Assembly (NCBI GenBank): GCA_046570105.1
Contig: JBKHVI010000032.1
Span: 1-31,384, forward strand
Length of the DNA stretch: 31,384 bases
Reading direction: 5' to 3'
DNA from: Bacteriovoracia bacterium
GTDB taxonomy: Bacteria; Bdellovibrionota; Bacteriovoracia; Bacteriovoracales; Bacteriovoracaceae
A program made the position numbers and the translations under genes. A model generated the notes under the pieces. That model searched no databases. It worked only from the letters and a program-made list of their open reading frames with translations, and was not told the origin of the DNA. This document shows, in pieces, positions 12,433 through 23,027 of the stretch. Numbering within the stretch: the stretch's first letter is position 1; every line of letters begins with the position of its first letter.

Positions 12433-12458
12433 AAACCACCTCGCCGGGAGGTTGGTTT
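12433..12458. terminator. Inverted repeat / possible terminator or insulator hairpin upstream of the TA promoter
   Basis: AAACCACCTC-gccgg-GAGGTTGGTTT, a stem with a one-base bulge. Confidence 0.45.
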
Positions 12459-12486
12459 GACAAATAATGACAATGTATATACAATG
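12457..12486 (+). promoter_or_regulatory. Sigma70 promoter with an overlapping palindromic operator for the brnTA pair
   Basis: TTGACA (12457-12462), 17-nt spacer, TACAAT (12480-12485). Perfect palindrome TGTATATACA at 12474-12483. Confidence 0.75.
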
Positions 12487-12768
12487 AAATACAGACAGCT
12501 GTTTGAGTGGGATGAGTCAAAAGAATGGGCTAATCGCATGAAGCATGGTCTGAGATTTGAATCAGTTTTAGGTCTCTGGGAAGATAAGCTCGCTAGTGAG
12601 TTTGTCGATGAAAACTCAACAAAAGAAATTCGCTACATTCGTCGAGGTTTCAATGAGCTGAATCAATTTCTCGTTGTTGTATTTACCGAAAGAAACGACA
12701 CCATAAGAATAATTAGCGCAAGACTTGGAACACTAAGAGAGAGGAGGCTACATGAGGGACGAATATGA
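12484..12768 (+). CDS. brnT: BrnT-family type II toxin (ribonuclease)
   Basis: FEWDESKEWANRMKHGLRFE and LVVVFTERNDTIRIISAR. Overlaps the downstream antitoxin start. Confidence 0.9.
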   Translation: MKYRQLFEWDESKEWANRMKHGLRFESVLGLWEDKLASEFVDENSTKEIRYIRRGFNELNQFLVVVFTERNDTIRIISARLGTLRERRLHEGRI

Positions 12769-13003
12769 TTTCACAAAGATGAAAAAGAGACCTGGAAAAG
12801 TTAAAGTCATTCCTGAAGCTAGCAAGATTCCTATTAGCTTACGACTAGAAGCCGCCACAATTGTTGCTTTAAAGGACGAGGCTGAAAGATTAGGAATCCC
12901 CTATCAAACACTTATTGGCAGTGTGCTGCATCGTTATGTAACAGGTGAGATGTTGGATCGAGAACAAATGGAAAAGGTTATGGAGATTATAAAAAAACCT
13001 TAA
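12752..13003 (+). CDS. brnA: BrnA/CopG-like ribbon-helix-helix antitoxin
   Basis: MRDEYDF N-terminus and ISLRL...LKDEAERLGIPYQTLI. SD GAGGAGG. Confidence 0.85.
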   Translation: MRDEYDFTKMKKRPGKVKVIPEASKIPISLRLEAATIVALKDEAERLGIPYQTLIGSVLHRYVTGEMLDREQMEKVMEIIKKP

Positions 13004-13662
13004 TTCAGAGCCAATTTCTTTCCATCTTGAAAAAGCCAAGTAGGCCCTACAAAAGTTTTACGTTCACCATCGATAATAATTCCCGCCCCATCTGGGCATG
13101 CGTAAAGCATGCGCTTAGACTTTCGGGTTAGTTTTCTAAACTCAGTATCGTAGCGAGGAGAATTTTTGTAATGAGGAAAGAAATCGAACTCCAAGAGACC
13201 CAAGGAATCGAGATTCTTAATATTGTCATGATTTTCATCACGATCAAATGAAGGCATCGCAGCTGTTGTAATATCGGGAGTCATCATAATGGCTCCGGCC
13301 GAAAGCCCAGTAAGAATCCCACCATGATGAACATAGTCACGAAGGGCTTCCAGCATCTTCGTTTTTCTCAGCCACAATAAGAAATGAAATGTGTTACCGC
13401 CACCTAAGTGAATTATATCCGCTTTGAGGACTTCTCGAAAAAGCGTGCGGTCAAACGGCACATCAACAGGGAAATGCAAAAAACGTTTCACGCGAAAACG
13501 ACGGTATTGATCGACAAAATGTTGGAATTCTATTTCAGAAAGATAGGAGGATGCAGGTATGTACGCCATGAGTGGGTTTTTTACTTCCACCATACGCATC
13601 AACTCATCATCTAAGACTCGATTCGCTCGGGCATCTCCACCCGAGTACAGCACCAACTTCAC
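13000..13662 (-). CDS. Peptidase S51 family (peptidase E / cyanophycinase-like, class I GAT-like fold)
   Basis: YIPAS, IHLGGGNT, nucleophile GLSAGA, LGLL..DFFPHY. The GTG start abuts the stop of the upstream gene. Confidence 0.88.
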   Translation of the reverse strand: MKLVLYSGGDARANRVLDDELMRMVEVKNPLMAYIPASSYLSEIEFQHFVDQYRRFRVKRFLHFPVDVPFDRTLFREVLKADIIHLGGGNTFHFLLWLRKTKMLEALRDYVHHGGILTGLSAGAIMMTPDITTAAMPSFDRDENHDNIKNLDSLGLLEFDFFPHYKNSPRYDTEFRKLTRKSKRMLYACPDGAGIIIDGERKTFVGPTWLFQDGKKLALN

Positions 13663-15522
13663 TTATAATCCTTCTCGGCACTCCCGCACGATTCCTGCCA
13701 TATCACGAAGGATATTCTTCTGACGTGAAGGTGAATTGTCTCCAGGGTCAATCTCAGTTGTTTTTGCACGAAGATCGGGATCCAGTGTTTGATAGTGAGC
13801 AAATTCACTCATGATCTGGAAAACTTCTTCGGCTTTTAAACGCGGACGACACTTCGAAACCTTTTCAACCACATACGTAATCGAGTCACCTGTAACACGA
13901 TCATACTTATTTATGACTGATGAGCGCATAGTGATATCAAGCAATAGTTGGTGACGCTCTTTCTTTTGATCTTTTGCACAAAGATCAACAAGATTGAGAT
14001 AAGCCACTTGGAAACGCTTAATCTGCTTCAACATCATTGGTGTAAGCTGCAAGTCTTGCTTCTTGGCATAACTCGAACGAATAATTTCGATGAATTCATC
14101 CGGCTTAAGTAACTCTCCACGAGTTAAATAAAGCTGAGGAAGCTCACGCAGAATATCGCGCATACAAAATACCGCATCACGGGTAATACCATCGGCGACT
14201 TTATAAGTTCCACGGACACTTTTAGCGCGCTCAAACCAAGTGAAGACACGGCGGAAGACGCGCACATCATTTAAATGAGCTTTAAAAAGTTCTTGGGCAT
14301 ACTTTTCTTTAAAGCCCACTTTATAAAGAACGTTTTGATATTTGGTTTTCTCAAATGTTTCTTCAAAACGCTTCAGTGCCGGATGGTTTTTAAAATCGGC
14401 GAGAGGACGTTTTTTCTTTTTAATTAAGAAGTCAGTGATTTGAGCGAAACATTGCACAATGTATTTAGCTTTTTGCTTCTGCTCCAAAATTGTCGTTGAG
14501 AAGCGCTGAACATCATCGTAACGATATTCACTATGGAACAAACCGAACTGACGAATTGAACCATAATCAATGATTCCGCCATCCATCAAAATATTATCCC
14601 CATCCCAATCGAGCCAGCAGAAAATGTATTCATCTTCAAAGCGAGCCGCAGTTTCTGCAAACGTTTTTGAAACCTGGTCGAGTAAATAATTATAGCGCTC
14701 AGTAGGCGTCTTCGAACGAACATCAGGCCAGTTACCATTCGCCACTTCACGTTCAGTGTAACAATCAGCCACTTGCTTGAGAGCTTTGTAGTTACCTTGC
14801 TTCAAATGACTAAAGAAGTGCGAAGGACGTAATAGATTTTGGTAAGCCCGAACATTAATAGCTAAACCTTTGTCGTACTCAACAGTTGCTAGGAGTCGCT
14901 CCGTTTTCACGCGATTCTTTTTGAATACTTCTGAGAAGAATAACGTCTCTAAACCTTCACCAGTTTCACTACATCCGCAACCGTATGAAACAGAAGGGTC
15001 GCCTGTCTGAAAATATTTCTTTTGAATATTCACTGCTGGTGACAAACGTGTTCCACCCGTTCCACAACTTGAGATGTCCCAAGTTGTTCCTTGATGACGG
15101 ATATTTCCATTCCAAATCGTGCGGCCATCTCCCGATGTACGGCCCGACTTATCAGGATGCTGAAGTTGCAAATAGCGAGTCGCCATATAAGTATTCGGAC
15201 GAATCTCGTCTTCAGGGAATTTGATATTATTTTCAACATCCCATTCGTTAATAATTTGCAGACTAAATGTTTCGAGGATTTGTTTTTCTAATTCTGGATT
15301 AAGTACTGCTGGATGATCTTTCGGGATGAGTCCCATTTCCTTGGCGAGGTCAAAATGAAAGAAAACGACCTTGCCACCCTTCTTAGTACGAACCTTATAC
15401 TCCACGCGTCCATCAGGAACCTGCGTCTTAAAAGGGTGCTCGCCATTAATTTTTTGGAACATCGGGTAAGACTTACGAGCTTCGTCTTCCGTCACCTGCG
15501 GCTTCTTTACTGAACCTACCAT
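13663..15522 (-). CDS. Divergent SelO/YdiU-like pseudokinase-fold protein
   Basis: SGDGR, WDISSCGTGGT (cf. HLKGAGxT), LRPSHF (cf. IRFGHF), WDGDNILMDGGIIDYG (cf. MNTDNM...DYG). ATG 15522 has an AAGGA SD. Confidence 0.68.
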   Translation of the reverse strand: MVGSVKKPQVTEDEARKSYPMFQKINGEHPFKTQVPDGRVEYKVRTKKGGKVVFFHFDLAKEMGLIPKDHPAVLNPELEKQILETFSLQIINEWDVENNIKFPEDEIRPNTYMATRYLQLQHPDKSGRTSGDGRTIWNGNIRHQGTTWDISSCGTGGTRLSPAVNIQKKYFQTGDPSVSYGCGCSETGEGLETLFFSEVFKKNRVKTERLLATVEYDKGLAINVRAYQNLLRPSHFFSHLKQGNYKALKQVADCYTEREVANGNWPDVRSKTPTERYNYLLDQVSKTFAETAARFEDEYIFCWLDWDGDNILMDGGIIDYGSIRQFGLFHSEYRYDDVQRFSTTILEQKQKAKYIVQCFAQITDFLIKKKKRPLADFKNHPALKRFEETFEKTKYQNVLYKVGFKEKYAQELFKAHLNDVRVFRRVFTWFERAKSVRGTYKVADGITRDAVFCMRDILRELPQLYLTRGELLKPDEFIEIIRSSYAKKQDLQLTPMMLKQIKRFQVAYLNLVDLCAKDQKKERHQLLLDITMRSSVINKYDRVTGDSITYVVEKVSKCRPRLKAEEVFQIMSEFAHYQTLDPDLRAKTTEIDPGDNSPSRQKNILRDMAGIVRECREGL

Positions 15523-15617
15523 TAACCATCCTTGGTTACAGACGTATCTAAATAAAATTATAGGACCAGTCGTACGGTATCCCAAACTAAAACTGTCAGC
15601 GGGAGCTTTTTTCCCCT

Positions 15618-19849: not shown

Positions 19850-20380
19850 CTAATTTATGCCGAGACTCTTAAACGTGAGATAAGTGAGCCTTAATCGCTT
19901 TTCGGTACTCTCATCCATAGAGAGAAGCAATTGCTCTAATTCATCGGCCAGCCCCATATCACAAACAAATTTGTCGGCTTCTACTTCGGCCATTAATGGA
20001 TCTTTATCTACTGGATTCTCAAGTTCATAAAGCACTAAGGCCAATTCATGGGCAACAAACGCAACCGCTTCGACAGCACCGCGCTTAAACATTTTTTGAA
20101 ATTCTGGAAAAATCACTACGGTGTTATTCATTTGAAAACGAGCAGCACCTTCAGACTTAAAAACTTGTGACGGAATAAATAGCAAAGGTTGGCGCAGAAG
20201 GGTGGCAAGAAGAGCGCTCGGAAGTCTTTCAAAGCAGGCCTTGAATACACCATAGGTGTTGGCGTCTTCATTCATCCAAGCATGCTCTGGAAGTGAGAAA
20301 AAATATTGGCAGAAATCTTCGCGCTGAATGCGAGCAGATGTGGCACCTAGACGACGATATTTTTGAAATAGATTAAGCAT
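19850..20380 (-). CDS. Hypothetical protein with a degenerate zincin (M48/M78-like) motif
   Basis: VAHELAL (HExxH with the second His lost) followed by EVEADKF. SD GAGGTG. Confidence 0.6.
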   Translation of the reverse strand: MLNLFQKYRRLGATSARIQREDFCQYFFSLPEHAWMNEDANTYGVFKACFERLPSALLATLLRQPLLFIPSQVFKSEGAARFQMNNTVVIFPEFQKMFKRGAVEAVAFVAHELALVLYELENPVDKDPLMAEVEADKFVCDMGLADELEQLLLSMDESTEKRLRLTYLTFKSLGIN

Positions 20381-20445: not shown

Positions 20446-21201
20446 ATGCGTTGCCTGATAATTCTACTTTTATTCCCCATCGCTCATGCCCAAGAAACGA
20501 GCTTTCTTTGGTACCCCAATAAAACGCGTTTTCCAGAGGGAGAATGTGTGCAAAAACACACTCCATCTAATGGAGATTCCTTTGTGGGCAAGGCCCGTCC
20601 CGAGGACTGCCGGCCTGAAAAAACTAGTTACCTTTGGCTCAAAGACAATTGCTATGAAGTTGACCAAGAGACTCAGGGACAGCTTTTTGGTGTCCGTGTT
20701 CGCGATATCCACAAATGTGCGCCCGCCGATGCCCTCTATGCCTTCAATCAAGAGAAGCGAGAGTGTTGGCTGGTTGATCCCTCGGGTGGCCAAAAATTTC
20801 GTGCCAAGCTTAATCCCCAAGAATGTCGCCCACCCGAAGATGAAATAAAAAAAGAATTCAAACTCAATCAAAATGGCCTGGGTGGTGAGTGTGTTGAAAT
20901 ACACAAAACTCAAGGTAGTGCTCGCTGGGAAAAACGCATCTTGGTTTATGAATGCAAACCAAAAAACGTAACTGCTCTTTGGCGCAAGACAGGTGAACTC
21001 AAAGGTGAATGTTGGTTAACGGGCGATACTGAGAGCTATAGTGAGAAAGTCGCCTTCTCATCCTGTCGACCAAAGAATGTCAGTTATCGTTTTGTGAGAA
21101 CATCGGAAAAAACCGGTGATTGTTTTGAAGTGGATAGTGAAACGCAAGGGGATCAGTACGCTTCAAAAGTAAAACCCGAGCTGTGTATCAATCAGAATTA
21201 A
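20446..21201 (+). CDS. Secreted protein of six tandem two-Cys repeats (36-43 aa each)
   Basis: Signal MRCLIILLLFPIAHA. Recurring pattern [aromatic]...(G)ECxx..G..[FYW]..K....C(R/K/A)P. Confidence 0.8.
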   Translation: MRCLIILLLFPIAHAQETSFLWYPNKTRFPEGECVQKHTPSNGDSFVGKARPEDCRPEKTSYLWLKDNCYEVDQETQGQLFGVRVRDIHKCAPADALYAFNQEKRECWLVDPSGGQKFRAKLNPQECRPPEDEIKKEFKLNQNGLGGECVEIHKTQGSARWEKRILVYECKPKNVTALWRKTGELKGECWLTGDTESYSEKVAFSSCRPKNVSYRFVRTSEKTGDCFEVDSETQGDQYASKVKPELCINQN

Positions 21202-23027
21202 TTTTTATCACTTAGGTAACGAACTAACTTTTCTCTGAGATCTTGTATATTGCGATAAGGATTGTAGTCTGCCGGAGCGTCCGGTCGAATTTTTGAATAA
21301 ATATCTACATCAAAAAGCACGGGCGTTCCATCCTGCTTAATAAATACCTGAAAATCACCTGGATCAATTTTAGCTGCTTTTAACTTTTTTTCCATATCCA
21401 GTAATGCATCCACGGTGTGCTGGCCTAAAGCATAGTCCTTGATCTGTTTTCCTGAATTAGGGAAAAACTTATATCCACCAATTGAACTTTTAAATACTCC
21501 ACCTTCCACATACTCAGATACAATAGCACGTTTTCCATTCGGAAGAACGGTGATTCCTTGATAAGGTGTTTTGATTCCGGCGGCTTCAACCATTTCATAC
21601 ATTGCCGCTTCATCAAGAAGAGCTTCTTCGCGATAATGAGACTTAATCATGACTCTTTTACCATTGCGATTGGCCAGCTGAAGATCTGCAATATTGCTTA
21701 CGAAATGGCGGCCATTGGCATTTTGGCCATTATCGGCCACCAGATTCAATTCAGTACCAGGAACCTGTTGGAGACTTTCAGGTTTTACAGGAACAACTTT
21801 TTCTGTGCGAGCAAGTGTTCCGAACTTCTTGGTGAAGCTAAACACTTTCGCCGTTGGAGCAACCGTCTTGAGAACACTCCCTGCACCAAAACCTGCCAAA
21901 GGGGCCATGACAAGTTCGAGGGCATAGTCTTGCTCAGCTGCAGAAAGCGCATCAAAATCTGTCACGAGTTGGCTATCAAGAGTTGCAGTGAATGTTCGCA
22001 TCTGCTCTTGCTCTCTGTTCTGATGAGCAAGGGCCACATTCGTTCCGGTCATGATAGCACCCGAAGCAAAACATAAAGAAAGACCAACTCCCGTCCAAGC
22101 ACTCGCCAGGCAGCCCACCCCAAGCGCTCCAGCTGCACCCACTTGCATCCATCGCTTGGATTTGTCGTCAGCGAGTTTTTCAGAGATCAAATGCTCGGCT
22201 ATCGTACAGTAGTTGGGATTTTCTAAAACTAAATCAGAGATTAATGGATAGAAGCCCGCTAGATCTTTGGCATCAAAATTTTTCTGCAAAAGATCCTGAT
22301 TATTTTCCAGCATTTTGTCGATCGCTTCAATCACAGCTTCTGAACTTGGGTTAGCAGAATCAACTAACGCCATAATCGGTGCTCTTTTCAGAGTTTCTGT
22401 ATAACGAGATTTGTATGTCTCTTGTAGGTGATCACGAAGACCTGAGTCGAGATGATTTCCAAATTTCTTAAGAGACTCTTCGAAAACTTGTTTGGCCTCT
22501 TGTTTCACTTCATTTGAAATTTTAACTTTTCCACCGAATGGATGTTGCGTTTTAGGAAATTGAAAAAGATCTGGCTGAGTTGCACCAAACTGATAGCGAA
22601 CAGCGGAGTTTTGCTGAAACCCCAGCACCAGAGATAGGTTCATCTCATGCCAATTCTTGCTGATGCCATCTAGGATTTGTTTTCGGACGGCCGCACACCC
22701 TGGGTAATTGGGTTCAACAAAACATCGCTTTTGCAGTTCTAATTTTTTTATATTCGCACGAGTTACAAATTTCACTCGCTGCTCGGCCTGCGACAAAAGC
22801 GAGAGGCGAAATTTTTGCCCGTCGGTATGCTTTGAAAAGTCTTCGATGAAATCATCCATCTCACCCAGCTTTGGGAGCGGCGAACGATACTCACACTGAA
22901 AATCAGTTTGAATTTGATTTCCGTTCGAATTCTGTAATTGATTACACTGAGGAAAATGTTGAAACTCACTTTTTTTTGCAAAAGCGAGAAGCGGAAATAA
23001 AAGCATCAATAGGGCAAAGATTCTCAT
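21198..23027 (-). CDS. Secreted 609-aa protein with a central hydrophobic hairpin and a C-terminal protein-kinase-like domain
   Basis: Signal MRIFALLMLLFPLLAFA, Gly/Ala-rich hydrophobic stretch VGAAGALGVGCLASAWTGVGLSLCFASGAI, then VMIK / DEAAMY / IVSEYVEG / IDPGDFQ / LFDVD. Confidence 0.72.
   Translation of the reverse strand: MRIFALLMLLFPLLAFAKKSEFQHFPQCNQLQNSNGNQIQTDFQCEYRSPLPKLGEMDDFIEDFSKHTDGQKFRLSLLSQAEQRVKFVTRANIKKLELQKRCFVEPNYPGCAAVRKQILDGISKNWHEMNLSLVLGFQQNSAVRYQFGATQPDLFQFPKTQHPFGGKVKISNEVKQEAKQVFEESLKKFGNHLDSGLRDHLQETYKSRYTETLKRAPIMALVDSANPSSEAVIEAIDKMLENNQDLLQKNFDAKDLAGFYPLISDLVLENPNYCTIAEHLISEKLADDKSKRWMQVGAAGALGVGCLASAWTGVGLSLCFASGAIMTGTNVALAHQNREQEQMRTFTATLDSQLVTDFDALSAAEQDYALELVMAPLAGFGAGSVLKTVAPTAKVFSFTKKFGTLARTEKVVPVKPESLQQVPGTELNLVADNGQNANGRHFVSNIADLQLANRNGKRVMIKSHYREEALLDEAAMYEMVEAAGIKTPYQGITVLPNGKRAIVSEYVEGGVFKSSIGGYKFFPNSGKQIKDYALGQHTVDALLDMEKKLKAAKIDPGDFQVFIKQDGTPVLFDVDIYSKIRPDAPADYNPYRNIQDLREKLVRYLSDKN

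Follow-up and report, generated by a model that had tools for sequence, protein, structure and literature searches.

A remodelled SelO-fold protein linked to an S51-family hydrolase in Bdellovibrionota: a possible aminoacyl ligase and hydrolase pair

In many Bdellovibrionota a remodelled SelO-fold protein occurs as a second member of that fold, and its gene is tied to a small gene for an S51-family hydrolase. We describe the pair from a 31,384-nucleotide stretch of a Bacteriovoracia bacterium (contig JBKHVI010000032.1 of assembly GCA_046570105.1; the whole stretch is called the window below), in which a 619-residue SelO-like protein is encoded directly ahead of a 220-residue S51 protein. It is likely that the two proteins make and break an amino-acid amide bond rather than AMPylating proteins in the ordinary way; if so, the fold would have a wider chemistry than is now known. 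In the specific form that we favor, with a probability of roughly 0.4 and with every chemical step inferred, an adenylating SelO-fold ligase would make an aminoacyl (likely aspartyl) amide and the S51 enzyme would hydrolyze it. The features concerned are as follows:

13663..15522, minus strand: SelO-like gene, 619 residues from the ATG at 15522; SelO-fold, unnamed subfamily
13000..13662, minus strand: S51 hydrolase gene, 220 residues from GTG; S51 family, with Ser121-His164-Asp191 by alignment and an invariant Asp142
15557..15585, minus strand: sigma70-like promoter site TTGGGA-17-TATAAT, a consensus match upstream of the ATG at 15522

Predicted fold and active site

The AlphaFold2 model of the SelO-like protein, built from 141 sequences, has a predicted local distance difference test (pLDDT) score of 95.4. 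All nine Foldseek matches to it at E ≤ 0.001 are YdiU/SelO, at 12–16% identity in the structural alignments, and a wide structural search aligns 462 residues to Pseudomonas syringae SelO (6EAC) with Z 25.8 and a root-mean-square deviation of 3.8; the next match has Z 8.4. When profiles are aligned, the match to a set of 20 canonical SelO proteins of the same phylum reaches a probability of 99.5. The original prediction, made from the sequence alone, had called the protein a divergent SelO-like pseudokinase, and a SelO fold is indeed predicted over its whole length. It had also pointed to a long, basic, helical C-terminal region. The basic composition stands (54 Lys and Arg against 37 Asp and Glu in residues 346–619), but a separate, extra domain does not: the structural alignment to P. 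syringae SelO reaches both chain ends (model 16–616, chain 0–475), and the C-terminal helical region is therefore SelO's own, enlarged by insertions.

A Pfam scan of the 619-residue protein returned no match, SelO (PF02696) included, and some relatives score weakly above the 22.8-bit Pfam SelO cut-off (29–36 bits). The NCBIfam YdiU model matches the protein at E 9.6e-10, with 38.1 bits against a cut-off of 431. A single-sequence search of the PDB gave spurious matches only; a 20-sequence profile found YdiU there at E 0.18. Clusters of Bdellovibrionota proteins in a language-model atlas have 30–47% of their members labelled SelO.

The catalytic core is retained. The SelO landmarks named in the original prediction are present (GDGR at 131–134, R232-x-x-H235-F, D309-N310, D319-Y-G), and across 141 aligned family members, to which the residue counts below refer, R116, G131, D132, G133, R134, R232, D309, N310 and D319 are invariant (141/141), with R225 in 139. 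R225, R232 and the GDGR loop correspond to the phosphate-binding arginines and loop of SelO, the mapping to P. syringae R176 being by alignment, and D309, N310 and D319 match P. syringae D252, N253 and D262, the base and magnesium ligands, in all 141. Around this core the pocket has changed. In SelO, a lysine binds the gamma-phosphate, a glutamate positions that lysine, and the Asp/Asn/Asp set supplies the base and metal ligands (10.1101/2020.07.08.194084). Profile alignment agrees with the earlier reading that ISSCG replaces the LKG lysine motif, putting Cys153 on the beta3 lysine position (K113), and that GCG(CS) occupies the second GDG(R) of SelO. Position 153 in the family is Arg in 63, Cys in 59, Ser in 11 and Lys in 2 members; the site of the alphaC glutamate (E136) is Thr193 here, and Glu in 0/141. 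An acid at position 189, new with respect to canonical SelO, occurs in 141/141, and several pocket motifs are conserved in the family and absent from canonical SelO: LQLQH, W303-x-x-W306-D307, R324, H330, R334, D337 and R340. The model and these counts suggest a SelO-fold enzyme with an intact metal-binding and catalytic core and a remodelled, tightly conserved pocket.

The lost lysine may be compensated elsewhere. Position 47 is Lys or Arg in 86% of the members with Cys or Ser at 153 and in 6% of those with Arg153; 130 of 139 members have a basic residue at 153 or 47 (exactly one in 126), nine have neither, and 74 Acidobacteriota-type sequences have one at both. It is possible, from the alignment, that basic residue 47 stands in for the lysine, a pattern that rests on few evolutionary events.

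The C-terminal Cys tail is also missing: 128 of the 141 members end in Ile or Leu. Among canonical SelO proteins of the same phylum, 15 of 20 end in CSS or CGT; a Cys-x-x tail is common in SelO, not universal. The family C-terminus is of fixed length and ends x-E/D/H-x-Ile/Leu (window 13663–13680, minus strand), at the position of the active-site Cys tail of SelO, and it may plug the active site.

Distribution of the family

A profile search of 301 Bdellovibrionota genomes gave 150 matches to the SelO-like family, 143 strong (E < 1e-100) and seven weak. Strong matches are single copy, genome G236 excepted; a second, strongly diverged copy in that genome (locus L174, G236:C3:37223-38512; family code f1) has Arg153 and altered activation-segment motifs. 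The closest named homologues of the window's protein are from Bacteriovoracaceae, and those known from cultured Peredibacter and Halobacteriovorax carry no annotation beyond hypothetical protein; the Peredibacter orthologues of the two proteins are WP_321397787.1 and WP_321397790.1. A library at 50% identity held 209 family representatives at E ≤ 1e-30, many of them fragmentary, and one branch of the family is named Acidobacteria/Pyrinomonadaceae in public records. In viral contigs, 89 pattern matches included no relative of the family. In a FastTree of 81 proteins most groupings follow the family code, and there is one Arg153 clade and one Cys/Ser153 clade. A canonical SelO, distinct from this family, is encoded in the window's genome, and 166 of the 301 genomes of the phylum have one too.

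In a SelO-fold group that is more divergent, the beta3 lysine is still present (P0223, P0226, L175:3717-5780 and L176:3135-4928, the last two on the minus strand). P0223, P0226 and L176 start, as judged by eye, with signal-peptide-like segments, and the group may comprise secreted SelO-like enzymes of predators. L175 aligns to the SelO-like family at probability 99, and both L175 and L176 have Gly at the column of the catalytic Asp.

The S51 partner

The 220-residue protein matches Pfam PF03575 at 96.7 bits (cut-off 23.9). Its GGGNT, GLSAG and PHY motifs, described earlier as intact, are so, and are invariant or nearly so across 96 orthologues. S121, D142, H164 and D191 are invariant in 96/96. 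Ser121, His164 and Asp191 form the triad, D191 having been assigned by alignment to the acid position of PepE; this invariance of triad and Asp142 argues that hydrolysis is under selection. The nearest solved sequence is Lmo0363 (3L4E; E 1.8e-23). The protein falls under the NCBIfam equivalog cut-offs for both PepE (55.4 against 156) and cyanophycinase (31.5 against 126.6), and public records name it 'Type 1 glutamine amidotransferase-like domain-containing protein'.

The substrate range of S51 enzymes had been taken to cover both Asp-X and beta-Asp-Arg bonds. The beta-Asp-Arg bond is itself cleaved by isoaspartyl dipeptidases. Asp-X cleavage holds; the beta-Asp-Arg bond does not, and what cyanophycinase liberates from its polymer is Asp-Arg dipeptides (PMC11078827). 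The substrates of characterized PepE-type S51 enzymes are small and carry Asp at the N terminus; PepE has a Ser-His-Glu triad, and MccG and its clade have Ser-His-Asp (PMC9239234). The MccG clade hydrolyzes an Asp-nucleotide amide and is inactive on the intact peptide-nucleotide (PMC9239234), and Streptomyces Orf2, which has Ser-His-Asp and requires an Asp at the substrate site, cleaves Asp-X bonds and, to a lesser degree, isoAsp-Leu (PMC11078827). Because other S51 clades have no peptidase activity (PMC9239234), an Asp specificity of the partner described here is a probable assignment only.

There is a single case of a canonical SelO gene followed, one gene downstream and in the same orientation, by a distant S51 paralogue (L299:3011-5733; G245:C9).

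Linkage and co-occurrence

As first observed, the TAA of the SelO-like gene (13665–13663) abuts the GTG of the S51 gene with a gap of zero. At the first 110 loci, the S51 gene is next on the same strand in 105; two others stop at a contig edge and three have no S51 gene within 1.5 kb. These loci reduce to 97 distinct ones, with a four-nucleotide stop/start overlap in 73, no gap in eight, other short offsets in five, and 11 unparsed (five without S51, six with). When neighbors were clustered, S51 was found at 103 of the 110 loci and the next most frequent neighbor at 46, 30 of the loci having 1.5-kb flanks only.

Across the 301 genomes, some of them incomplete, a profile search with E < 1e-50 as the threshold for an S51 orthologue found one in 88 of the 143 genomes with the family and in none of the 158 without it. 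The two genes are in tandem in 66 of these 88, head-to-head in seven (match starts 49–146 nucleotides apart), on opposite strands 2.6 kb apart in one, and unlinked in 14. The adjacency is thus conserved across genomes in two geometries. Among f1 genomes, the SelO-like gene occurs without an S51 orthologue in G191, G227 and G282, and the S51 orthologue occurs alone in 0 of the 11 that lack the family. A link kept through rearrangement, together with a ligase found alone but no hydrolase found alone, is the pattern expected of an accessory enzyme that depends on the product of the other.

Pairwise identities of the two proteins correlate at 0.93, and both trees follow lineage. Inter-protein covariation over 101 paired loci (effective number 62) gave a top z of 5.1, from lineage-driven pairs that are no better than noise-like pairs within each protein. 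No fusion with the S51 protein was found: none of 1181 candidates among proteins of 386–2000 residues scored, which is weak evidence.

Gene start, promoter and nearby genes

The longest frame for the SelO-like gene in the output of the open reading frame (ORF) finder starts at TTG 15585 and would encode 640 residues. We favor the ATG at 15522 because the closest homologues are 614–619 residues long and because the TTGGGA-17-TATAAT site occupies 15585–15557, about 35 nucleotides ahead of that ATG. The motif is weak alone: five sites turned up where shuffled sequence would give 8.0. The -10 box recurs in the nine same-genus upstream regions listed (TATAAT in eight, TATACT in one), and the spacer varies among relatives. 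The site likely drives a two-gene unit of the SelO-like and S51 genes, on this sequence evidence.

A BrnT/BrnA-like type II toxin–antitoxin pair (window 12457–13003, plus strand) forms a convergent insertion that overlaps the S51 stop by four nucleotides; it was not seen at the same place in same-genus loci. Three further window ORFs have no Pfam match: 21198–23027 (minus strand, 609 residues), 19850–20380 (minus strand, 176 residues) and 20446–21201 (plus strand, 251 residues).

Neighborhoods without the S51 gene

Genomes with family code f9 carry the SelO-like family in 27 of 38 cases, none with a strong S51 match. In f9 and f13, the steady upstream neighbor of the SelO-like gene encodes a glutathione-synthetase-like ATP-grasp protein, present at 30 of 70 distant loci; a model of one such protein (L135:8384-9556, minus strand) matches eukaryote-type glutathione synthetases. 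Its role as a third component is unsupported: it occurs in 38/38 f9 and 7/7 f28 genomes, whether or not they carry the family, and in only 6/74 f1 genomes. The copy in the window's genome (G000:C21:29637-30899; L182) lies, as judged by eye, among metal-resistance-like genes.

The Acidobacteriota-type branch (L201–L281) usually follows glgB, GH57 or ROK genes and precedes a class V aminotransferase gene, with no S51 gene. A link to glycogen was considered from this neighborhood and set aside, the arrangement being kept among close relatives only and missing from several of the loci that diverge most. The SelO-like protein was also considered as a stand-in for NAD synthetase or gamma-glutamylcysteine ligase. 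NadE and GshA (PF08886) are each present in 5/5 genomes tested, with or without the family, and the idea was rejected on that ground; GCS2 is present in 2/5 and PF04262 in 0/5, and NadD and AsnB show no family-linked pattern in five genomes.

Discussion

If the two proteins are linked chemically, the S51 enzyme implies that the bond joins a small aminoacyl group as an amide or an ester and is not a Ser/Thr/Tyr-AMP phosphodiester. The matching writer would activate a free amino acid. The pathway that we propose would begin with ATP bound in the flipped SelO mode, as D309, N310, D319, GDGR, R225 and R232 suggest, for transfer of AMP. The carboxylate of an amino acid, rather than a Ser, Thr or Tyr acceptor, would then be adenylated, a step suggested by the chemistry of the partner and by the precedent of MchC/MceJ. 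The amino acid would most plausibly be Asp, given the PepE/MccG-type Asp142 and triad. The aminoacyl group may pass from the adenylate to an amine acceptor, either a metabolite or a protein amine, and the S51 protein may hydrolyze the resulting aminoacyl amide, or a side product, as an accessory for turnover or clean-up. An accessory of this kind would explain why no hydrolase was found in the absence of the ligase, which for its part is often present by itself. The original prediction had proposed a pair that adds and removes an amino-acid modification: the SelO fold is predicted and the linkage is conserved, the pair is not obligatory, and the chemistry is inferred only. A narrower version, in which the SelO-fold ligase of predatory bacteria would modify protein amines reversibly with an aminoacyl (aspartyl) group by way of a free amino-acid adenylate, with the S51 protein as dedicated eraser, seems to us quite doubtful; if true, it would be a tRNA-independent writer/eraser system of a kind not described for the kinase fold.

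Several observations weigh against the ligase and hydrolase pathway. The Lys-Glu pair, which makes the gamma-phosphate contact in SelO, is missing from the family. The S51 orthologue is missing in 55 of the 143 family genomes, and no S51 gene lies near any of 81 Acidobacteriota-type loci, many of them short; the pair is therefore not obligatory, nor is S51 an obligatory subunit. G326 holds only a distant S51 protein (E 3e-14). G190, without a family match, has an S51 protein at E 1.8e-37, whose long branch falls within the tree of orthologues, and is a possible exception just under the cut-off. The count of 0/158 also overstates independence, because of kinship among the genomes and because genes that are linked tend to disappear as a unit. 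In many cases, the 14 unlinked S51 orthologues stand beside genes that, by names taken from sequence, are aminopeptidase N-, Leu/Phe-tRNA-protein transferase- and M32 carboxypeptidase-like, surroundings that fit plain peptide catabolism. Among the neighbors, no biosynthetic or export genes were seen to travel with the pair.

It is possible, though rather unlikely, that the SelO-like protein is a narrow-target protein AMPylase, or another nucleoside monophosphate transferase, that works by SelO chemistry with the S51 protein as a bound accessory or regulator. SelO is the sole close fold and the catalytic core is intact; the translational coupling of the two genes fits a 1:1 complex; and other kinase-fold nucleotidyltransferases need a partner, as do SidJ, with calmodulin, and MceJ, with MceI. 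Against this, a triad and Asp142 invariant in 96/96 place hydrolysis under selection, and the window's genome, like 166/301 genomes of the phylum, already encodes a canonical SelO. A serine amidase would not be expected to cut a phosphodiester, and RNase Z is reportedly the eraser of SelO. We consider it unlikely that the S51 protein is instead an ordinary nutritional Asp-X dipeptidase sharing a promoter, with no common chemistry and with co-occurrence arising from descent and joint loss. Both genes follow lineage, with identities correlated at 0.93, and the unlinked orthologues lie among peptide-catabolism-like genes; the glutathione-synthetase-like neighbor, stable in another clade yet present without the family, further indicates that stable neighbors need not be functional partners. 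However, the link survives in two geometries, the f1 SelO-like gene stands alone in three genomes and the S51 orthologue in 0/11, and no other neighbor comes near the S51 count (103/110 loci against 46, with short flanks at 30).

The remaining possibilities appear still less probable. The SelO-like protein could be a nucleotide-binding pseudoenzyme, or could act on a diphosphate cofactor (NAD or an NDP-sugar) in place of ATP, as the loss of the lysine and alphaC glutamate, the new invariant acid at 189 and the binding of NAD in recent YdiU structures might suggest. This is improbable in our view, given that the family retains its catalytic base, its two metal ligands and its two arginines, and that a basic residue at 153 or 47 in 130/139 members may compensate for the lysine, with few evolutionary events behind that pattern. 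The NADase activity of SelO needs the C-terminal Cys (PMC13391479), and an NADase-type role is disfavored because the family lacks it. We give a very small chance to a two-subunit amidotransferase, in which the S51 protein, which has a fold like that of class I glutamine amidotransferases, would free ammonia or an amine for a carboxylate adenylated in the SelO-like subunit, with S51-less lineages using free ammonia. Glutaminase partners of adenylating synthetases show just such a one-way dependence, and the public name of the partner points the same way. The nucleophile, however, is a Ser in an S51-type triad, whereas class I glutaminases use Cys, and NadE and GshA in 5/5 genomes regardless of the family leave no gap in these two pathways.

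No description of the SelO-like family, or of its pairing with S51, was found among the results listed from the literature searched, which left most subscription papers outside. The word 'peptidase' does not occur in the main text of a SelO neighborhood analysis (PMC10364804), and the searched terms do not occur in the text of a Bdellovibrionota comparative-genomics paper (PMC11656739), whose supplements may list the family. Kinase-fold pseudokinases have repeatedly been shown to do new chemistry, including AMPylation, glutamylation, RNA capping and NAD hydrolysis. The SelO branch described here is widespread, soluble-looking and usually single-copy; it has lost the Lys-Glu pair, kept the catalytic metals and acquired a conserved pocket of its own. 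The linked small hydrolase points to the bond that would be made, and the system is therefore directly assayable. If the proposed ligase/hydrolase cycle is true, it would enrich pseudokinase enzymology as well as the core biology of predatory bacteria, of which little is known.

Comparison with known systems

The original prediction had turned to SidJ, an analogy that fits poorly. The glutamylases SidJ and SdjA are kinase-fold enzymes with flipped ATP and an acyl-adenylate, as proposed here, but SidJ adenylates the Glu side chain of its target and uses a catalytic-loop insertion that forms a migrated nucleotide pocket (10.1101/2021.04.13.439722). In the present protein, the aligned loop ahead of D309 differs from that of SelO by one residue and has no insertion, and side-chain activation would give a product unlike the known PepE-type substrates. 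SidJ was not among the fold matches listed for the model.

On the hydrolase side, the S51 protein shares, by alignment, the Ser-His-Asp triad and the substrate-site Asp with MccG (S51 clade V), Bacillus subtilis PepE and Streptomyces Orf2; it differs from PepE in a six-residue insertion (FPxFDxD) before Asp142. MccG is encoded in a cluster with a nucleotidyltransferase and hydrolyzes an Asp-nucleotide amide (PMC9239234). Unlike the MccG system, the partner here is SelO-fold rather than the ThiF-like MccB, and no precursor peptide or exporter was seen. An isopeptide eraser for proteins is the less likely role, because PepE-type S51 enzymes act on small N-terminal-Asp substrates and MccG spares the intact peptide.

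A precedent nearer than SidJ, within the SelO fold itself, may be MchC/MceJ, set beside the present protein by description only. In class IIb microcin maturation, MchC/MceJ, a distant SelO branch, works with an adjacent partner (MchD/MceI) to attach a siderophore to a peptide (PMC3281104). The partner here is an S51 hydrolase and not an HlyC-like acyltransferase, and the genes are vertically inherited and usually single copy. MceIJ is said to act through an ATP-activated carboxylate. No microcin, siderophore, exporter or HlyC-like genes were found among the 32 window proteins scanned with Pfam.

The closest relative remains SelO/YdiU (PF02696; 6EAC, 6K20, 6LNA, 9JYM), with which the protein shares its whole-length predicted fold, the GDGR loop, two arginines, the catalytic Asp-Asn and DYG. 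It differs in having lost the beta3 Lys, the alphaC Glu, the second GDG and the Cys tail, in being about 140 residues longer, in its new pocket motifs and S51 partner, and in coexisting with a canonical SelO. It would thus work like a SelO-fold nucleotidyltransferase, yet the missing Lys-Glu pair, the scores under the family cut-offs and the absent tail place it outside SelO.

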